DNA from: Candidatus Obscuribacterales bacterium
GTDB taxonomy: Bacteria > Cyanobacteriota > Vampirovibrionia > Obscuribacterales > Obscuribacteraceae
Reading direction: 5' to 3'
DNA: 64,000 nucleotides
Assembly (NCBI GenBank): GCA_965228855.1
Contig: CBDDIJ010000003.1
Span: 3,328,001-3,392,000 of the forward strand
The translations under genes and the position numbers were made by a program. This document shows positions 11,880-52,223 of the stretch, piece by piece (the stretch's first letter is position 1; every line of letters begins with the position of its first letter). The notes beneath the pieces are model-generated. The model saw only the letters and a program-made list of their open reading frames with translations, was not told the origin of the DNA and did no database searches.

Positions 11880-11953
11880 CGTCTGTGTGGTAATTCCCCC
11901 TGAGGGCGATTGAAATTGATATAGCTCGAAAAATTCAATCAGGAACAACGTAG
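11880..11953. repeat. Joined (empty) copy of the two flanks of the small selenoprotein locus
   Basis: 11880-11919 resembles 21768-21806 (CCCCCTGAGGGCGAT.GAAATTGA). 11920-11946 is identical to 22085-22111 (TATAGCTCGAAAAATTCAATCAGGAAC). Confidence 0.85.
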
Positions 11954-21538: not shown

Positions 21539-21811
21539 GAAGCGTTCGGATTATTGGTGTTGCGTGCTAGATTGCGGCTTATGTCGAACTCCGCACTATG
21601 GTAGCAGTTTCAGAGCAGCGCTCGCTGGTTTCAAGTAGACGAAGGATGACGTGAATGAGCAATTCCGCCTGGAAGCTGACTTTACCAGTGGCAATATCTC
21701 AAGCAGCGAACTGTATAACTTCTGGCATGAACACTTCGACAATTATAAGTTAGATGACGTGAAGTCCCGTCCGTGTTGTAATCCCCCTGAGGGCGATAGA
21801 AATTGAATTAG

Positions 21812-22009
21812 CTATCGCATGTCCTTCTTCGGTGGCGTCTCAACGCGTTTCAGGCCAAAATCTTCAGCGTCAACTTCCTTCTTGTTGCTCTTCTGCTCGA
21901 CCGAGCAGTTGCGGGACATTCAAGTCTGAATGCCCATCTTCGGGAGGATCCAAAGTTGCATTGCAAAATACAACACAACGAATCCAAAGAACAAAAATAC
22001 GTTTTCCAT
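21812..22009 (-). CDS. Putative 65-aa single-TM selenoprotein (in-frame TGA at 21922-21920)
   Basis: Translates as MENVFLFFGFVVLYFAMQLWILPKMGIQT-U-MSRNCSVEQKSNKKEVDAEDFGLKRVETPPKKDMR*. GGTGA RBS-like sequence upstream and a SECIS-like hairpin 11 nt after the TGA. Not in the ORF track. Confidence 0.72.
21893..21908 (-). promoter_or_regulatory. Candidate bacterial SECIS element
   Basis: mRNA UGA-AUGUCCCGCAA-CUGCUC(GGUC)GAGCAG: perfect 6-bp stem, GGUC loop, 11-nt spacer. Confidence 0.7.
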
Positions 22010-22301
22010 CACGTTCACCGTTGTTCGCTTTATTGGTGAGTTAGCATCTGTCGTAGTACGCATCATATTCACCTCTGACTTAAGTATAGCTCGAAAAATT
22101 CAATCAGGAACGACCTAGCAATCAGCCGCGGTCGAACTGGTAGAAACGAGTCCAAAGTCGCGGTGGAGTCAGGAAGCGTGCCGGTTCATCAAATAAGCGG
22201 AATGCAGGAAGAGAGTTGCACGCTGCCGGATATCGCGGTTTAATACTAAAGTTAAGCAACCGGACAAATCGCCGGCAGTCATACGGAGTCTCTTCAATCA
22301 G

Positions 22302-24167
22302 ATGGCAACAAATCACCGCAGGTTTCAACTTGCACTAGCTCTGGCGGTCTCATTGCTTATGCCACTGCCCGCGGCGGCAAGTGATGAACAAGAATCCAGC
22401 GCAGATCCTGTTGATACCGGAGTCGTCACAGAATCCGCCAAAGCAGCTGTCGAATCGAAGGCATCAACGAATTTGATGACTGAACCGCCGAAGATACCTG
22501 ACCTGCCGGCACCGGTGCCAGGCGAGGAGAAACTTGTAGAGCGGCTGTCCAAACGCGACTTCGAGACAGCGCAGAAGTTGATTAAGAAACGGTTGAGTAG
22601 GAAAAACACCCGCGCCCAGAAGGCGGAACTGCTAAATCTCCTTGCTTACACTTACTACAGACAGAACAAAACCCGCAGTGCCATAAAAATTTTGGAACAT
22701 CTTTCGGATGACAATACCTCGAAGGAAGGCAAACGCGCAGGTGTTTTGCGAGAGAAGAGGCTAGCCGACATGTACGTTCATCTACCTGATGAACAGAAAG
22801 CAATCGAGATGTACAAGTCTGCACTCGCAAAAGCAAATAAATACGATCGCAACGATTCAATCCGAATATCAATTTTGGAACCGCTTACCGGACTGCTTGT
22901 AGAGAAGAAGGAATTCGAAGAAGCTCAGCCATATGCGGAAGAGCTAACATCACTCTGCACCGCTCGAGTCAAAGCCGGACATATCGCGGAAGTCGTTTCA
23001 CTTTTCTGGGCGCATACACACCTGGCAAGGATTTATAACGAAACCAAAAACTCTGATGCGTCAGCAAAATTTACCCCTCAACTTCTAGCACTGCTCGATC
23101 CTTTACTTACACTATCAGCGAAATACCAGGCGAATTCACTCGAAGAAGATCAAAAGGCATATGTGCGCTTTCAGAACAAGATGCGGGACGAATTCATCGA
23201 AGATAACACGCCCAGGACATTGTCAGAATATCTCTGGCTGAGCTCACAATTCAGAATGCGCGATCTCCCGCTTACAAACTGGACTGCAAGCACCGGAGCG
23301 AAACCTAAAGCTGCTATTCTATGTGTTCACGCATTGGGATTGAGCAACCGGGCTTTCGGTCCCTTAGCGAAGGAGCTGACGAACCGCGGATTCACGGTCT
23401 ACGCGATGGATGTTCGCGGCTTCGGCGCATGGCAACACGAATTCGGAAGCGAGACAGTTCACTTCGAACGAGCTATGGATGATGTCAAATCCATTTTGCA
23501 ACTTATCAAAATGCGCGAGCCAGGCAAGCCGGTTTTTCTACTCGGGGAATCGATGGGCGGAGCAATTGTGCTGAGGGCCGCAAGCGACTATGCCGGCGAG
23601 ATGTCTGGCGTTATATCTTCGGCGCCCTCGGCGAAGCGTTACGGTGAGGCAAAACTTGCAGCGCTTGTTGCCCTTCACTTGTTCAGAAAACCAACCCAGC
23701 CATTCGATATCGGCGAGCAATTGGCTCAACAAGCCACTAGCCAGGAAGATTTACGCGAGATATGGAAACATGACCCGCGAGCGAAGGTCTCCTTAACTCC
23801 TATCGAATTGATCAAGTTCAATAAGTTCATGATCGACACAAGCAAGTCATGCAGCTCGATAGACAATGTGCCGATCATGGTCGTGCAAGGGCAAGCCGAC
23901 AAGTTGGCAAAGCCGCAAGGGACCTATCAGATGTACGATTCTGTTTCCTCAAAAGACAAAGCGATGCTCATTCTAGGCGACGCGGAACACCTTATTTTTG
24001 AACTGCCGAATCAATCAAAAGTTCTGCTCGACGGTGTGACAAGTTGGTTGGATAATCACCTGGCAATGCAAGCGTCGAAGCCTATACCGAAGCCCGTAAC
24101 TTTAGAAAACAAAACCGAGAAGCAAAGCAAGGCTCGAAAAGCAGCGCGAAAAAAGGCTCAGCTTTGA
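22302..24167 (+). CDS. Exported TPR plus alpha/beta hydrolase (lysophospholipase-like) fusion
   Basis: Signal peptide, TPR helices, CVHALG, DVRGFG, nucleophile GESMGG, then GQAD and AEHLIFE triad residues. Confidence 0.85.
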   Translation: MATNHRRFQLALALAVSLLMPLPAAASDEQESSADPVDTGVVTESAKAAVESKASTNLMTEPPKIPDLPAPVPGEEKLVERLSKRDFETAQKLIKKRLSRKNTRAQKAELLNLLAYTYYRQNKTRSAIKILEHLSDDNTSKEGKRAGVLREKRLADMYVHLPDEQKAIEMYKSALAKANKYDRNDSIRISILEPLTGLLVEKKEFEEAQPYAEELTSLCTARVKAGHIAEVVSLFWAHTHLARIYNETKNSDASAKFTPQLLALLDPLLTLSAKYQANSLEEDQKAYVRFQNKMRDEFIEDNTPRTLSEYLWLSSQFRMRDLPLTNWTASTGAKPKAAILCVHALGLSNRAFGPLAKELTNRGFTVYAMDVRGFGAWQHEFGSETVHFERAMDDVKSILQLIKMREPGKPVFLLGESMGGAIVLRAASDYAGEMSGVISSAPSAKRYGEAKLAALVALHLFRKPTQPFDIGEQLAQQATSQEDLREIWKHDPRAKVSLTPIELIKFNKFMIDTSKSCSSIDNVPIMVVQGQADKLAKPQGTYQMYDSVSSKDKAMLILGDAEHLIFELPNQSKVLLDGVTSWLDNHLAMQASKPIPKPVTLENKTEKQSKARKAARKKAQL

Positions 24168-24206: not shown

Positions 24207-27200
24207 CTACACGGGCTTCGATGTATCATCGGCGTCTTTCTGGTTCGTAATCCGGTAGAGCGTTGGCAGGACTACGAGCGTCATGGCTGTGGCGGTCAGC
24301 AGTCCACCAAACACGACGGTCGCCAGTGGTCGCTGCACTTCCGCACCGGTTCCGTGCGAAAAAATCTTGGGCAACAGACCCATCGTTGCAACCAACGCTG
24401 TCATCAAAACGGGTCGCAATCGAGTGGTGGCGCCTTGCACAATAGCCTCTCGAATCTCAACGCCTCTAGTCTGCAACTGCATTATATAACTCAGCATGAT
24501 GACGCCGTTTTGAACAGCCACTCCGAACAGCGCGATAAAACCGATGATCGCTGGAACCGATAGCGTCTGCTGAGAAACAAACAAACCCACAATGCCACCA
24601 ATTAAAGCGAACGGAACGTTCAGCATAATCAACGCCGCGTTTTTTATCGAGTTAAACGACGAAAAGAGCAGAATGAAAATCAAGCCGAGAACAATTGGAA
24701 CAACGATGGATAGCCGTTCCATCGCCTTGCGTTGATTTTCGAATTGACCGCTCCAGACAATCTTGTAACCCTTCGGAATTTTCACATTCTTTGCCACCCG
24801 CTCCTGAGCTTCAGCGACGAACGAACCCAGATCCCTATTACGAACATTCGCCAGCACTGCAGTTCTTCGCTGACCATCCTCGCGATTTATTGTCACAAGT
24901 CCACGCGACCTTACAAACTTAGATAAGTGGTCCAGCGGAATTCGAGCACCAGTTGGCGTGTCAACGGCGATCTCGGCAATGTCTTGCGGGCTATCGCGGT
25001 ACAACTTGTCGTATCGAACCAGAACGCCGAAACGTCTGTAAGCCTCGATAACTTCGGTGACGCTGTCACCCGCAAGAGCAACTCTGAGTATTCCCAGCAC
25101 ATCATCTGAGTTTAAACCGAAACGCGCGATCGCTCGCCTATCGACTTCAATCTGAAGTTCAGGCAGACCGAGCAAGTGCTCACGCTGCAGGTCAACGGCA
25201 CCGCGTACGCTGGAAATTTCACCTTGAATTTCTTCAGCCAGCTTCGCAAGCACCTTTTCGTCGTCTCCAAAGATTTTGATACCGAGGTCAGCACGAATAC
25301 CGGCAACGAGGTCGTCAATCATATCGGCAATCGGCTGAGAAAAACTGTAGGAAACACCAGGAATAGACTCGAGGCGCGCGGACATTTTGTTGATCAGTTC
25401 CTCTTTGCTGTGCGCCGTTTTCCACGTGCTGAGCGGTTTTAGTCCAATATAAAAATCAGATGCATCCACCCCATCAAGTCCCGGGCCGTTCGTCGGTCTC
25501 CCGGTCCTTGAAACTACCACCTCTACTTCCGGAAACTCCATCAAAAGCTTTTCAATAGACTCGGCATAACGCCTGGAATTTGTGTGCGAAACACTAGCAG
25601 GCATCTTCGTTCTCACAAGAATTGAGCCTTCATCTAACGTGGGTATGAACTCGGATCCTAGAAAAGGCAGCAAGCAGAAACTCGCTGCCAGACAGGCGAG
25701 GCTTGCCCCTATAACCAGTTTAGGTTTATCCAGAGCAAAATTTAAAACAGGAATATATTTGTTAGCAATCCAGACTACAGCAGGATTTTCGCGCTCTACG
25801 ATTTTCCCGCGCAATACCCAAAAGCAGAGAACCGGAATGATTGTCAGAGAGCACAGCAGCGATCCGGTTATCGCGTAGATAAACGTTAAAGCCAGAGGCT
25901 GGAACATCTTGCCTTCGATGCCTTCCAATGCGAACAACGGCAGATGAACCGCGATGATAATGCTTATTGCGAACACCACCGGCCGACCGACTTCGCGCGC
26001 GGCGTTGAGCACAACCTCAAACGTGTTGACCTTCTCAGAAGAGTGCCATGCCTTCGACAAATGGCGATAAATGTTTTCCACCATAACGACGCCGGCATCG
26101 ACAATTACGCCAAAGTCGACGGCGCCCAACGTCATCAAGTTCGCGGTCAGCCCCGTGTATTTCATTAGGATGAAACTAAACAGCAGCGAAATCGGAATTA
26201 TCACAGAGACGATTAACGCGCTCGGTATATGCAATAGAACAGCGGTCAAAATTACGATGACCAGTCCGCCGCTGAAGAACAAAATTTCTTTGACGGTCTC
26301 GATGGTCTTTTCTACTAGTTCGGTTTGGTCATAGAATGCAACTAGCTTCACCGACGGTGGCAACTCTCTCCGGATCTCCTCTACCTTTTCTTTGACGTGC
26401 TCCACAACCGCCTTTGTATTGACACCTTTGCGCGTATAGACGATCCCGATTACAGTTTCACCCCGCCCATCCTTCGACGCAGATCCGCGACGGAACGCCT
26501 CACCGATTGTCACATCGGCAACTTGGGAAACTTTTATCGGCGTACCGCTATACTCTTTTAAAACGATGTTCTTGATGTCATCGAGCGTCTTGATCCGACC
26601 GATTCCGCGTATAACGACCTCTTCACCGGCTTCCTCAATGAAATTGCCGCCGATGTTATCGTTGTTTGCGGCGACAATTCGTACGACGTCGGCAAGCTTG
26701 ATGCCAAACTTCCGCAACTGCATCGGGTGAATTACCAACTGATACTGTTTAACGAAACCGCCGAAGCTGCCGACATTGGCGACGCCGGGGACAGTTCGCA
26801 ATTTGCGGGCGATATCCCAGTCCTGGATAGTTCGCAACTCGGTGTTATTCAAATGATCCGATTCGAGCGAATACATATAAACCTGACTGAAGCTCGAAAT
26901 AACCGGTCCCAGCTCAGGCCGTCGCACCCGCTGTGGAAGGCTCGATTCAATCTGCATCAGGCGCTGCTGCACTAACTGTCGCGCAAAATAGACGTCGGTA
27001 TCGTCGTCAAAAATAGCCGTGACGACGGACAGTCCAAAACTCGAGGACGACCGAATCTGTTTTATCTTCGGGAGCCCGTTCAGAGCATTCTCGATCGGAA
27101 ATGTGATGAGCAACTCAATCTCTTCAGTTGCCATGCTTTCCGGTTCAGTGATGATTTGTACCTGAACATTACTCACATCAGGAAACGAGTCAATCGGGAT

Positions 27201-27299
27201 ATTGAGCATGCTCCAGATCCCGAACGCGACCACCCCGACCGCGACAATAAGCGTCAGCAGCCGTTGCTTCAAAGCAACGCGAATCAAATTATCGATCAT
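24207..27299 (-). CDS. czcA: CusA/CzcA-family heavy-metal RND efflux permease
   Basis: IPIDSFPDVSNVQVQI, ANLMTLGAVDFGVIVD, EGKMFQPLA, RLRPVLMTA and GAEVQRPLATVV; 1030 aa. Confidence 0.92.
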   Translation of the reverse strand: MIDNLIRVALKQRLLTLIVAVGVVAFGIWSMLNIPIDSFPDVSNVQVQIITEPESMATEEIELLITFPIENALNGLPKIKQIRSSSSFGLSVVTAIFDDDTDVYFARQLVQQRLMQIESSLPQRVRRPELGPVISSFSQVYMYSLESDHLNNTELRTIQDWDIARKLRTVPGVANVGSFGGFVKQYQLVIHPMQLRKFGIKLADVVRIVAANNDNIGGNFIEEAGEEVVIRGIGRIKTLDDIKNIVLKEYSGTPIKVSQVADVTIGEAFRRGSASKDGRGETVIGIVYTRKGVNTKAVVEHVKEKVEEIRRELPPSVKLVAFYDQTELVEKTIETVKEILFFSGGLVIVILTAVLLHIPSALIVSVIIPISLLFSFILMKYTGLTANLMTLGAVDFGVIVDAGVVMVENIYRHLSKAWHSSEKVNTFEVVLNAAREVGRPVVFAISIIIAVHLPLFALEGIEGKMFQPLALTFIYAITGSLLCSLTIIPVLCFWVLRGKIVERENPAVVWIANKYIPVLNFALDKPKLVIGASLACLAASFCLLPFLGSEFIPTLDEGSILVRTKMPASVSHTNSRRYAESIEKLLMEFPEVEVVVSRTGRPTNGPGLDGVDASDFYIGLKPLSTWKTAHSKEELINKMSARLESIPGVSYSFSQPIADMIDDLVAGIRADLGIKIFGDDEKVLAKLAEEIQGEISSVRGAVDLQREHLLGLPELQIEVDRRAIARFGLNSDDVLGILRVALAGDSVTEVIEAYRRFGVLVRYDKLYRDSPQDIAEIAVDTPTGARIPLDHLSKFVRSRGLVTINREDGQRRTAVLANVRNRDLGSFVAEAQERVAKNVKIPKGYKIVWSGQFENQRKAMERLSIVVPIVLGLIFILLFSSFNSIKNAALIMLNVPFALIGGIVGLFVSQQTLSVPAIIGFIALFGVAVQNGVIMLSYIMQLQTRGVEIREAIVQGATTRLRPVLMTALVATMGLLPKIFSHGTGAEVQRPLATVVFGGLLTATAMTLVVLPTLYRITNQKDADDTSKPV

Positions 27300-46313: not shown

Positions 46314-46808
46314 TTACTTCCGTCCTTGACCTTCCGCCTCGACAGAAAGGACACGGCTATTGGTTTCTAAATCGAAAACCGATACGGTATAACTACTCAC
46401 AGGCATGCGCCCTTCTTCCGGTACAACCTTAACGACTCGACCAGAAGGCTCAAGACGCTGGTTAAGCTGCTCCGCTACGCAATCCATGGTGGCACTACCG
46501 GACGAAGAAGCATCGCTGAATAGCTCCTCGAGGCGGGAAGCAGGCTGCGATTTATTATTCAGTTTTCCATCACTCAATTGGTCGGCGAGCTTGTCCAAAC
46601 CGGCAGCAGGTGCAGCGCCGTTACAAATATCCAGTGCTGGAAGAATCCCCTGCAGGTTTTCCGAACCTTGACCGGTTGTTCGTCCCCCTTTAACGAAGTC
46701 CTGACGGATTTCGTCAAACAGTTGTCGACCCAAATTTTGCTCGTTGCTATTAGTAAGTGTTTTGCCATCAGAGCTGGCATCAAACGGTCGTTCAATGAAT
46801 GTAGACAT
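46314..46808 (-). CDS. Hypothetical protein
   Basis: GAGGAG RBS, 164 aa. Confidence 0.65.
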   Translation of the reverse strand: MSTFIERPFDASSDGKTLTNSNEQNLGRQLFDEIRQDFVKGGRTTGQGSENLQGILPALDICNGAAPAAGLDKLADQLSDGKLNNKSQPASRLEELFSDASSSGSATMDCVAEQLNQRLEPSGRVVKVVPEEGRMPVSSYTVSVFDLETNSRVLSVEAEGQGRK

Positions 46809-46864
46809 TTTAGAAACTCCTCAGAACATTCGTTCGCTGGACAAGGAGGAGCCTAAAATCAACG

Positions 46865-46882
46865 CGTGACTTTCGTGTGACT
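46865..46882 (-). promoter_or_regulatory. Candidate OmpR-family binding box (second copy)
   Basis: Minus strand AGTCACACGAAAGTCACG, 56 nt upstream of ATG 46808. Confidence 0.55.
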
Positions 46883-47159
46883 CTAAAGTCATGCTGGCTG
46901 GAGTTCCAGAAGCGATGCGTAAATACGCAGATCTAATGCGCGAACTCTCCTTCAATCTATTCGTTTCTACTAATAAACTGAACACATACAAGAATCTCGA
47001 ACGAGATCAACCCCGACCGCATCCGCCCTCCCTGACTGCTCGAATTGAACGACCATCTGCCGCTGAAGCGGAACTTTATTACCACCACTCGCTCTAACAT
47101 TCGTGACGGGAACTGCTCAATCCGCATTTCCGATTCCCACACGAACGGAAGGACTATAT

Positions 47160-51081: not shown

Positions 51082-52152
51082 CTATCGTATTGCAGCTCTG
51101 ATCCCGTACTGGGCAGCCCGCATCAATAACGATTTGCCCTGTCGCTTCACTTGTGTTTTAACAGGATGAGCAGCCGGATCATTGCCAATAGCTTTGCCCT
51201 CTCCTCGTTGTTTCGTTGTCTGACCGTTACTGGCGACAAGTTCTTCCTCATTCTTGTCATACATCGGCCGGCCATAATCGCTATAGGCTTTCACATCGAA
51301 GTCTTTGTATTGAACAAACGGACGAGAAGCCATTCTCTGATGCATAATCACATCACATGTTTTCACCGCATGTGGTGGCAGGTCCATTTTGACAGGATCG
51401 AAAGTTCTCGGATTGATGACTGTTCTGTTAAACACATCGGACGTCAGAAAGCGTTTCTTCTTTTCATACGCAACATCAAAATGCTGCATTTCGCTGCGTT
51501 TACGCTCCGCCGCCGTATGCTGGCTCAGATGCTGCTTCTGCATCTCACTGAACTTCGCGTTTTTCTCGTCGCGGCTCAGAGCCGGATCGACCCAGACAGC
51601 ATTGAGAGTCTTGGCGAATTCCAGTTCGCTAGCCAGATCCTTAGAATTCCAATAGCCCGGCAGACAGGTCAAGACTGTACCGTCCGACGCCATAACGAAC
51701 ATTTGAATATTATGCGGACCGGCTCCGTTTGTCGTGTCGACGGCCTGTCCATTGGGACTGTGTTTACGCGAACTTCCGGCATATCCCTTGTTCTCGATAT
51801 CCTTATAGCCGCATACAAATTCGTTCTTAAGCAGACTAAAAACTGGATCTTGCGAGAGCGACACGGCTCTCAAGCTGTTCCCGGCGCTTCAAGTAAAACC
51901 ATCGAGCTTTCCGACCATATGCACCCAGAGTATCAGCTTGTCTTGCGCCGCCGCCTCTTCTTGCAATTTATCAAGGTCTCGGCTCCAGGTGATCTCATTT
52001 GTCAGTCGTCCAACATTCTCCGAACAGATTTGTCCGGAATAGACCGGTGACGCCTGTAATGGCGAATTCATACCGGATGAAACGATACCAGTCGCTAAAG
52101 AAACAGCCAGAAGAGCCGAAAGCAACGGACGAGCGGCAAGTGGATTTCGCAT
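51082..52152 (-). CDS. Putative exported thioredoxin-fold (SelN-like) selenoprotein, 356 aa, in-frame TGA at 51891-51889
   Basis: Track ORFs 51889-52179 and 51082-51873 share a frame and are separated only by TGA plus 5 sense codons: ...MVGKLDGFT-U-SAGNSLRAVSLSQDPVFSLLKNEFV. GGAGA RBS before ATG 52152, signal peptide, SECIS-like hairpin. Confidence 0.78.
51850..51873 (-). promoter_or_regulatory. Candidate bacterial SECIS element
   Basis: mRNA UGA-AGCGCCGGGAACAGC-UUGAGAGC(CGUGUC)GCUCUCGCAA: GAGAGC/GCUCUC stem with GU in the loop, loop about 23 nt after the UGA. Confidence 0.6.
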
Positions 52153-52223
52153 GTTCCATCTCCGAGAGCTAACATGCATTGTACACCGAGATGCTTCGGA
52201 CTGCTGACGCTATTCCAGCCACC

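Follow-up and report, generated by a model that had tools for sequence, protein, structure and literature searches.

A small gene on the minus strand of the window (the whole stretch of 64,000 nucleotides that was analysed) is, as judged from its sequence and that of its relatives, very likely a real member of a widespread and uncatalogued family that encodes selenocysteine (Sec), with a function that we infer. The original prediction of a 65-residue frame missing from the list of open reading frames, with one transmembrane helix, an in-frame TGA and a terminal TAG, was borne out: the frame is absent from the list (table 11, 60-aa list), carries one hydrophobic segment and a single TGA at codon 30 (21922-21920), and stops at a TAG. 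In the protein collection the gene is present only as a product of 48 residues cut at the TGA (P0004). The features of the gene and its surroundings were as follows.

21812-22009, minus strand: coding sequence of 65 residues if codon 30 (TGA) specifies Sec, ending in a TAG at 21814-21812 and with a start aligned with the family.
21920-21922, minus strand: in-frame TGA, codon 30, inferred Sec, behind the conserved P-x-x-G-x-x-T.
21944-22000, minus strand: residues 4-22, the one hydrophobic stretch (mean hydropathy 2.31) and predicted transmembrane helix.
21905-21907, minus strand: Cys35, the second residue of the U-x4-C motif.
21893-21908, minus strand: bacterial SECIS-type hairpin with a perfect 6-bp stem and a GGUC loop that begins 17 nt past the UGA, overlapping codons 34-39.
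22010-22066, minus strand: open in-frame leader from an ATG at 22066 or 22063, which may extend the N-terminus by as many as 19 residues.
22070-22075, minus strand: Shine-Dalgarno-like sequence GAGGTG ahead of the upstream ATGs.
21768-21813, no strand: 3' flank of the small gene, an 87% repeat over 47 nt at 11880-11926.
22302-24167, plus strand: divergent neighbour, a TPR and Hydrolase_4 protein (context only).

Depending on the start used, the product could be 65 or up to 84 residues long; the start at 22009 is favoured because 116 of 124 homologues begin 28 or 29 codons before the TGA. Codon 30 was identical in contigs of three other runs (X2, X4 and X5), and the window DNA may itself stem from two of these, X2 and X4. 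The structure of a Cys homologue (P0008) was predicted with AlphaFold2 using 72 sequences, which gave one helix at residues 2-25 (pLDDT above 90 for residues 1-20), followed by a disordered tail of low confidence. Among 104 members the mean net charge was +1.26 after the helix and -0.39 before it. Positive charge marks the cytoplasmic side of a membrane protein (the positive-inside rule), so that this bias suggests a cytoplasmic tail. The protein is likely to be oriented N-out/C-in, and Sec30 and Cys35 would then face the cytoplasm on a flexible tail just inside the membrane.

The proviso that the host should be a Melainabacterium agrees with the nearest titled record (locus L038), which shares 96% protein identity and 94% DNA identity over 5.2 kb and identifies the host as an Obscuribacterales/Melainabacteria relative. 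The genes for Sec insertion, proposed earlier as a check, were all found in the genome with profile scores over the cut-off: selA at 520.5 bits, selB at 267.5 bits, selD at 371.5 bits and tRNA-Sec at 73.5 bits. The host selB carries the SelB winged helix, the selD is of the Cys type and the tRNA-Sec has the anticodon TCA. An independent sign of Sec use in the host genome is given by an MsrA gene (G000:C2:2345574-2346185, minus strand; locus L122), a known selenoprotein family, in which a TGA occupies the catalytic G-U-F-W-G position with a hairpin behind it and the read-through product exceeds the TIGR00401 cut-off. The formate-dehydrogenase-like matches of the host contained no stops. The genome-wide read-through screen missed the small gene itself and does not give a full selenoproteome.

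Sec use is not peculiar to the host genome of the window. A selA over the cut-off was found in 79 of 101 genomes of the family. It was also found in 23 of the 250 genomes sampled elsewhere in the phylum; these 23 come from five families outside the host's class, while the largest family of the host's own class gave none in 98 genomes. The small gene and selA occurred together in 63 family genomes, selA alone in 17 and neither in 16; the five of 68 gene-bearing genomes in which selA was not found are all 76-86% complete. Outside the family, four of the five genomes with the gene had selA over the cut-off, and in the fifth the selA match is a fragment at a contig end.

The same genome and window contain other in-frame TGA codons. 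A second selenoprotein candidate was observed at 51085-52179 on the minus strand of the window, unannotated and 365 residues long, with a signal-like N-terminus, the motif T-U-S-A and a 6-bp hairpin that starts 17 nt behind the TGA and has GU in its loop; the longest-ORF call sets an opposite-strand frame (51151-52047) over it. The genome has three paralogues, the others being at G000:C3:1903060-1904274 (plus) and G000:C5:1052040-1053095 (minus). This second family was detected in 46 of 61 family genomes, nearly always with a single TGA, the same codon and hairpin being present in all loci read, and it had no Pfam or NCBIfam match at E ≤0.1. A weak read-through candidate at 46744-47094 (plus strand) has a U-x-x-C motif, overlaps an opposite-strand ORF, matches no Pfam or NCBIfam family and is probably spurious. 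A beta-carbonic anhydrase (G000:C5:1258174-1258929, plus strand; L124/L125), in which a TGA replaces the cysteine of H-x-x-C, was rejected as a selenoprotein, as the TGA is present in one of six loci and the five relatives have TGC; judged from these sequences it is probably a nonsense change or an assembly error.

The distribution of the small gene was examined with the query P0001, which matched 70 of the 101 family genomes (E ≤0.1; two weakly) at up to four copies per genome and, as this one query, none of the 250 other genomes of the phylum. A GTDB scan confirmed 101 stretches and retained 79 loci, some of them from Verrucomicrobiota, one from a Pirellulaceae and one from a Myxococcota record; in metagenomes 139 were confirmed and 80 retained. 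In the first set of homologues codon 30 was TGA in 75 of 77 and TGT in two, with three loci outside the search pattern later read as TGA, and in the second set it was TGA in 73 of 84 and TGC in 11. Overall this gives 148 TGA and 13 Cys codons in 161 readings, the 77- and 84-gene sets sharing some records. Neither TAA nor TAG was present in any of the 77 or the 84, which argues against the codon simply ending a membrane peptide of 29 to 48 residues, with the hairpin as a terminator, operator or stability element. That explanation draws on the database proteins, 72 of 88 of which end at codon 30; the remainder comprise 14 with Cys, one with Arg and one without the motif. The full HMMER scan yielded 765 clusters when grouped at 50% identity (E ≤0.001), and among the 141 new cluster representatives listed (P0092-P0232) the same column held Cys in 91, the end of the protein in 25, Trp in 19 and another residue in six. 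Cys homologues, which the original prediction proposed to look for, are present in both collections, and Cys in the column of the TGA again speaks against a stop. The Trp entries are probably the result of gene callers reading TGA as Trp, and would hide further Sec members.

Conservation was confined to the end of the helix, the P-x-x-G-x-x-T and the (U/C)-x4-C. P23, G26, C30 and C35 were invariant in 72 aligned, more distant members with a variable tail, and A16, Q18, L19, I21, L22, P23, G26 and T29 were invariant in 127 TGA genes, the search pattern fixing the first five of these. The Cys35 column of the 127 genes held Cys in 122, with the Cys one column later in three and lost in two (L103 and L105, Oceaniferula/Akkermansiaceae copies with Asn instead of the second Cys); as the Cys35 codon lies within the SECIS stem of the TGA genes, the stem by itself constrains this residue. 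Beyond the TGA, residues were conserved as amino acids, where their lack of conservation had been named as grounds for refusing the reading. The codon of Ser32, which lies between the TGA and the stem, was TCN in 78 and AGY in 31 of the 127 genes, a mixed use that indicates selection on the amino acid past the TGA and counts against termination, and 16-78 residues separated the TGA from the next stop in all 123 genes measured.

The hairpin was predicted to lie exactly 11 nt after the TGA and was found there (21908-21893). On its own it has a folding energy of -8.0 kcal/mol, which is unremarkable for a single sequence (z -0.25 for a 53-nt piece and z -0.96 for a 38-nt piece) and to that extent compatible with an ordinary stop; of the genome's 295,737 TGA triplets, three are followed at the same distance by a stem of at least 6 pairs with a GGTY loop. 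It is the family comparison, and not the single-sequence energy, that places the hairpin beyond chance. Hairpins were scored by our own criteria (a stem of at least 5 pairs, a loop of 3-6 nt starting with GG or GU, 15-24 nt after the UGA, at ≤-4 kcal/mol) in 135 cores, 127 with TGA and 8 with Cys, that remained after duplicates and genes with short flanks were dropped. A hairpin was present in 120 of the 127 distinct TGA genes, seven failing, compared with one of the eight Cys genes, an Obscuribacterales-type TGT gene; this association with TGA genes rather than Cys genes weighs further against a terminator or stability element. Random synonymous recodings of the same peptides passed in 19% of cases on average (maximum 44%). 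The stems of different lineages are built from different sequences that code different residues, homologues elsewhere having other stems and 3- to 5-nt GG/GU loops, and the constraint must for this reason act on the RNA. The covariance analysis suggested in advance was carried out on 42 GGUC-type genes hand-picked from the 127, whose relatedness inflates the figures: 98.8% of cells are paired, 11 of them through changes in both strands of the stem, and none of 500 shuffles scored as high. Sliding the stem partners in these genes reduced pairing to 24-55%. The stem codons were restricted at synonymous sites, while the upstream codons vary freely.

The bacterial SECIS consensus in the Fig. 2A legend of PMC13188914 has a loop of 3-9 nt with G in the first two places, a stem of 4-16 bp, a distance of 16-37 nt from the UGA and an energy of ≤-7.5 kcal/mol, and the window hairpin falls within each of these limits. 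Its likeness to the E. coli fdhF SECIS (K-12 record), part of the original prediction, holds for the GGUC tetraloop and for the upper stem starting 11 nt after the UGA; the bulged base in the upper stem of fdhF is absent here, where the 6-bp stem is perfect, and the loop lies at 17 nt instead of 18 nt. The fdhF protein and the window protein are unrelated.

Taken with the machinery, the Cys homologues, the absence of TAA and TAG, the conserved residues after the TGA and the covarying hairpin, these results support the earlier reading of the UGA as Sec. Binding of the GGUC hairpin by SelB and insertion of Sec at codon 30 are, on comparative evidence, very likely. The ordinary stop is correspondingly very improbable, and a promoter and terminator scan at the gene detected neither. 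The features of bacterial SelB/bSECIS genes are found together here: an in-frame UGA in a conserved frame, Sec machinery, Cys homologues, and TGA homologues in other Sec users. In comparison with the SelB/bSECIS genes with Cys homologues in PMC13188914, the small gene has the in-frame UGA, GG in a 4-nt loop, a 6-bp stem and 17-nt spacing. It very likely works like a standard SelB-decoded selenoprotein gene and belongs to no catalogued family that could be compared.

Searches of Pfam and NCBIfam 20.0 gave no significant match for P0001/P0002, 23 members, six Cys homologues or the 72 members, the best family-library E value being 0.0024 to an unrelated membrane family. The best E values were 0.11 in a PDB sequence search and 0.8 in a plasmid search, and the ESM Atlas, searched with the Cys homologue P0008, returned one unnamed cluster of 123 members (score 0.88) and no structural match. 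None of the 119 families in Table 1 of PMC13188914 is described there as a one-helix U-x4-C protein, those listed without an NCBIfam or Pfam model being set apart by name and motif only. Of the 18 Vampirovibrionia rows in the examined part of BSepDB Table S1 (PMC13326102), none is named Obscuribacter. Literature searches returned nothing relevant that linked selenoproteins with Melainabacteria, Obscuribacter with selenocysteine, or YgaP with a selenoprotein. Compared with catalogued bacterial selenoproteins, the small protein has little beyond one helix and the U-x4-C. The eukaryotic selenoproteins SELENOK and SELENOS also have one membrane helix and a disordered cytoplasmic tail that bears Sec; in these the Sec is near the C-terminus and the SECIS is in the 3' UTR, while here the Sec follows a few residues behind the helix, and no homology is claimed.

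The genomic surroundings of the family include sulfur genes at part of the loci. A gene for a rhodanese, persulfide dioxygenase, CoA-disulfide reductase-rhodanese, TauE or sulfide:quinone oxidoreductase-type SQR protein lies within 5 kb at 30 of 76 genomic loci, and at 21 such a sulfur gene, the rhodanese here being YgaP-type, is the immediate upstream neighbour on the same strand, with a gap of 23-123 nt in 19. The usual order is a divergent ArsR, a YgaP-type rhodanese, TauE, a dioxygenase-rhodanese, a reductase or SQR, and then the small gene. In the other 46 loci the sulfur gene is absent from the available DNA, many of these loci being short. SQR, persulfide dioxygenase-rhodanese, sulfurtransferase and TauE act in sulfide and persulfide detoxification in the cst pathway, as given in the available part of PMC12934615. 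The 21 homologues stand directly behind the same kinds of gene as in those cst/BigR-type operons, usually with a divergent ArsR-type regulator; a small membrane selenoprotein is not named in that part of PMC12934615, and the window copy lies outside such an operon.

In the window the small gene has a hydrolase on one side and kinases on the other, and a related hydrolase occurs within 5 kb of the small gene in nine of the 76 homologous loci, one of them the near-identical L038. A cluster in the host at C3:1,246,110-1,252,469 lies 2.1 Mb from the window gene and is without the small gene. This cluster (G000:C3:1246110-1252469) is complete, with CoA-disulfide reductase-rhodanese, ArsR, YgaP-type rhodanese, TauE, persulfide dioxygenase-rhodanese and SQR; the sulfide/persulfide clusters of relatives end with the small gene, and the host cluster does not. 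Both flanks of the small gene (21768-21813 and 22085-22118) recur at 11880-11953, 9.9 kb away, where they are joined to each other through a 5-nt repeat containing the stop codon. In L038 the small gene is followed directly by a homologue of the 11168-11833 gene, and a block of ~9.8 kb, with its right border at 21768..21813 in the window and containing two Ser/Thr kinases and a 1667-residue Gly-rich protein, is missing. Because the L038 gene directly precedes this homologue, most of the block looks to have been inserted behind the stop codon in the window genome.

In metagenomes, 69 of 85 neighbours were scanned from 44 hand-picked loci. The divergent homologues L158, L174, L199 and L208 adjoin rhodanese or dioxygenase genes, L154 and L165 follow ArsR, L159, L197 and L213 follow RND pumps, L137 precedes a DsbD-thioredoxin, and many others of the hand-picked loci have no related neighbour. 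In Verrucomicrobiota (L087, L094, L098, L107 and L110-L115) the gene stands behind argininosuccinate synthase argG at 10 loci and a truncated globin at nine, and has a different hairpin with a 5-nt loop. A tree of 96 rows requires at least three changes of sulfur context on well-supported branches and places the window gene in a subclade holding 21 of the 25 sulfur-context loci; the tree is poorly resolved, with 22 of 93 inner branches well supported, and most operon cases come from related genomes. Thioredoxin is fused to three Cys homologues, P0147, a one-member cluster on a 1-kb contig, and P0236 and P0237, the only longer matches among 7,999 scored candidates; the three fusions may represent one event.

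The sulfur-gene context and the thioredoxin fusions together suggest a membrane-tethered selenol/thiol arm. There is about an even chance, on this comparative evidence, that the protein is a membrane-tethered U-x4-C carrier or reductant for sulfane sulfur (persulfide or polysulfide). In such a cycle, which has similarly balanced odds, Sec30 would attack sulfane sulfur delivered from SQR, the membrane rhodanese or TauE, Cys35 would form a selenenylsulfide or pass the sulfur on, and thioredoxin or the CoA-disulfide reductase-rhodanese would re-reduce the pair. Counting against such a role are the 46 loci with no sulfur neighbour, the argG and globin context in Verrucomicrobiota, the distance of the window copy from the host's own sulfur cluster, the lack of a YgaP-type domain in five gene-carrying genomes outside the Obscuribacterales, and the two TGA genes that have lost Cys35. 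Of the tiny membrane-anchored redox or metal-binding peptide first envisaged, the membrane helix stands and the function would be narrowed towards the handling of sulfane sulfur.

A real selenoprotein could instead bind metals or metalloids (As(III), Cu, Zn, Cd or Hg) at the membrane to which it is anchored, buffering them or feeding efflux through U30 and C35. The ars genes (ArsA, ArsD, Acr3-like, ArsC-like) within 5 kb at 10 of 76 loci, an ArsR-type regulator at 19 of 76, the ArsR or RND efflux genes upstream of the five Cys homologues named above (L154, L165, L159, L197 and L213), an AcrB-family pump at 24210-27299 of the window and extra Cys residues in several tails are consistent with this role. 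The ars genes are, however, mostly downstream on the opposite strand, while the sulfur genes are upstream on the same strand; the ArsR genes head rhodanese operons and also match the BigR/TsoR models, below the cut-off, and the thioredoxin fusions suggest redox cycling. Metal binding is on balance unlikely. Those fusions would equally suit a general membrane thiol-disulfide relay or thioredoxin substrate, scavenging oxidants or passing electrons to DsbD-like proteins and not dedicated to sulfane sulfur, as would the DsbD-TM and thioredoxin gene directly behind L137 (a Cys homologue), the DsbD_N genes near L059, L066 and L076, the AhpC/TSA gene near L199 and the differing contexts across most loci. 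Against this, the persulfide operon is the commonest conserved context and occurs in separate lineages, and a general relay is, if anything, slightly less probable than a metal binder.

A plain anchor would not need conservation nearly as strong as that of the helix end and P-x-x-G-x-x-T, which suggests a binding surface. This would fit a role within a membrane complex, as accessory subunit or as regulator, in which Sec or Cys serves for covalent attachment, acylation or redox switching and not as a carrier. No partner gene accompanies the small gene in all lineages, and repeated Sec use is more usual at catalytic redox sites according to PMC13188914, so that such a subunit appears decidedly improbable.

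Two known sulfur proteins resemble the family in part. TsoB has a UxxxxU motif with the same x4 spacing as the U-x4-C here and a sulfur-transfer context; it is a large multi-domain fusion (a 572-position model) that is matched by no member of the small family. The YgaP-like transmembrane domain (PF11127, DUF2892) is likewise a small membrane domain with a conserved Cys in the same operons, but YgaP-type proteins have two hydrophobic segments when aligned, compared with the one helix of the window family. The G-I-x-T-C ending presumably resembles that of stand-alone DUF2892 proteins. None of the 72 members matched PF11127 (E ≤1), the search of the host genome with this model was also without the small gene, and the YgaP-type domain was present in none of the five gene-carrying genomes outside the Obscuribacterales; these searches gave no support for a relationship to DUF2892.

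The sulfane-sulfur reading leads to a broader proposal, held tentatively and with somewhat less than even confidence: that minimal membrane selenoproteins of one helix and a U-x4-C arm, spread over several phyla, may be a missing component of bacterial sulfide and persulfide detoxification, shuttling sulfane sulfur from membrane enzymes to cytosolic thioredoxin or CoA-persulfide reductase, and may form part of an overlooked selenoproteome in non-photosynthetic relatives of the cyanobacteria. If the operon link is true, a membrane component has been overlooked in the well-studied pathways of persulfide detoxification. The natural variants of the hairpin map what different SelB proteins accept. 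The protein could hardly be smaller and still be a selenoprotein, making it an easy model for comparing Sec with Cys at the membrane, with the natural Cys forms as controls. With this gene a widespread selenoprotein family is added that is truncated by gene callers and absent from the catalogues checked, and the use of Sec is shown across the Obscuribacteraceae.
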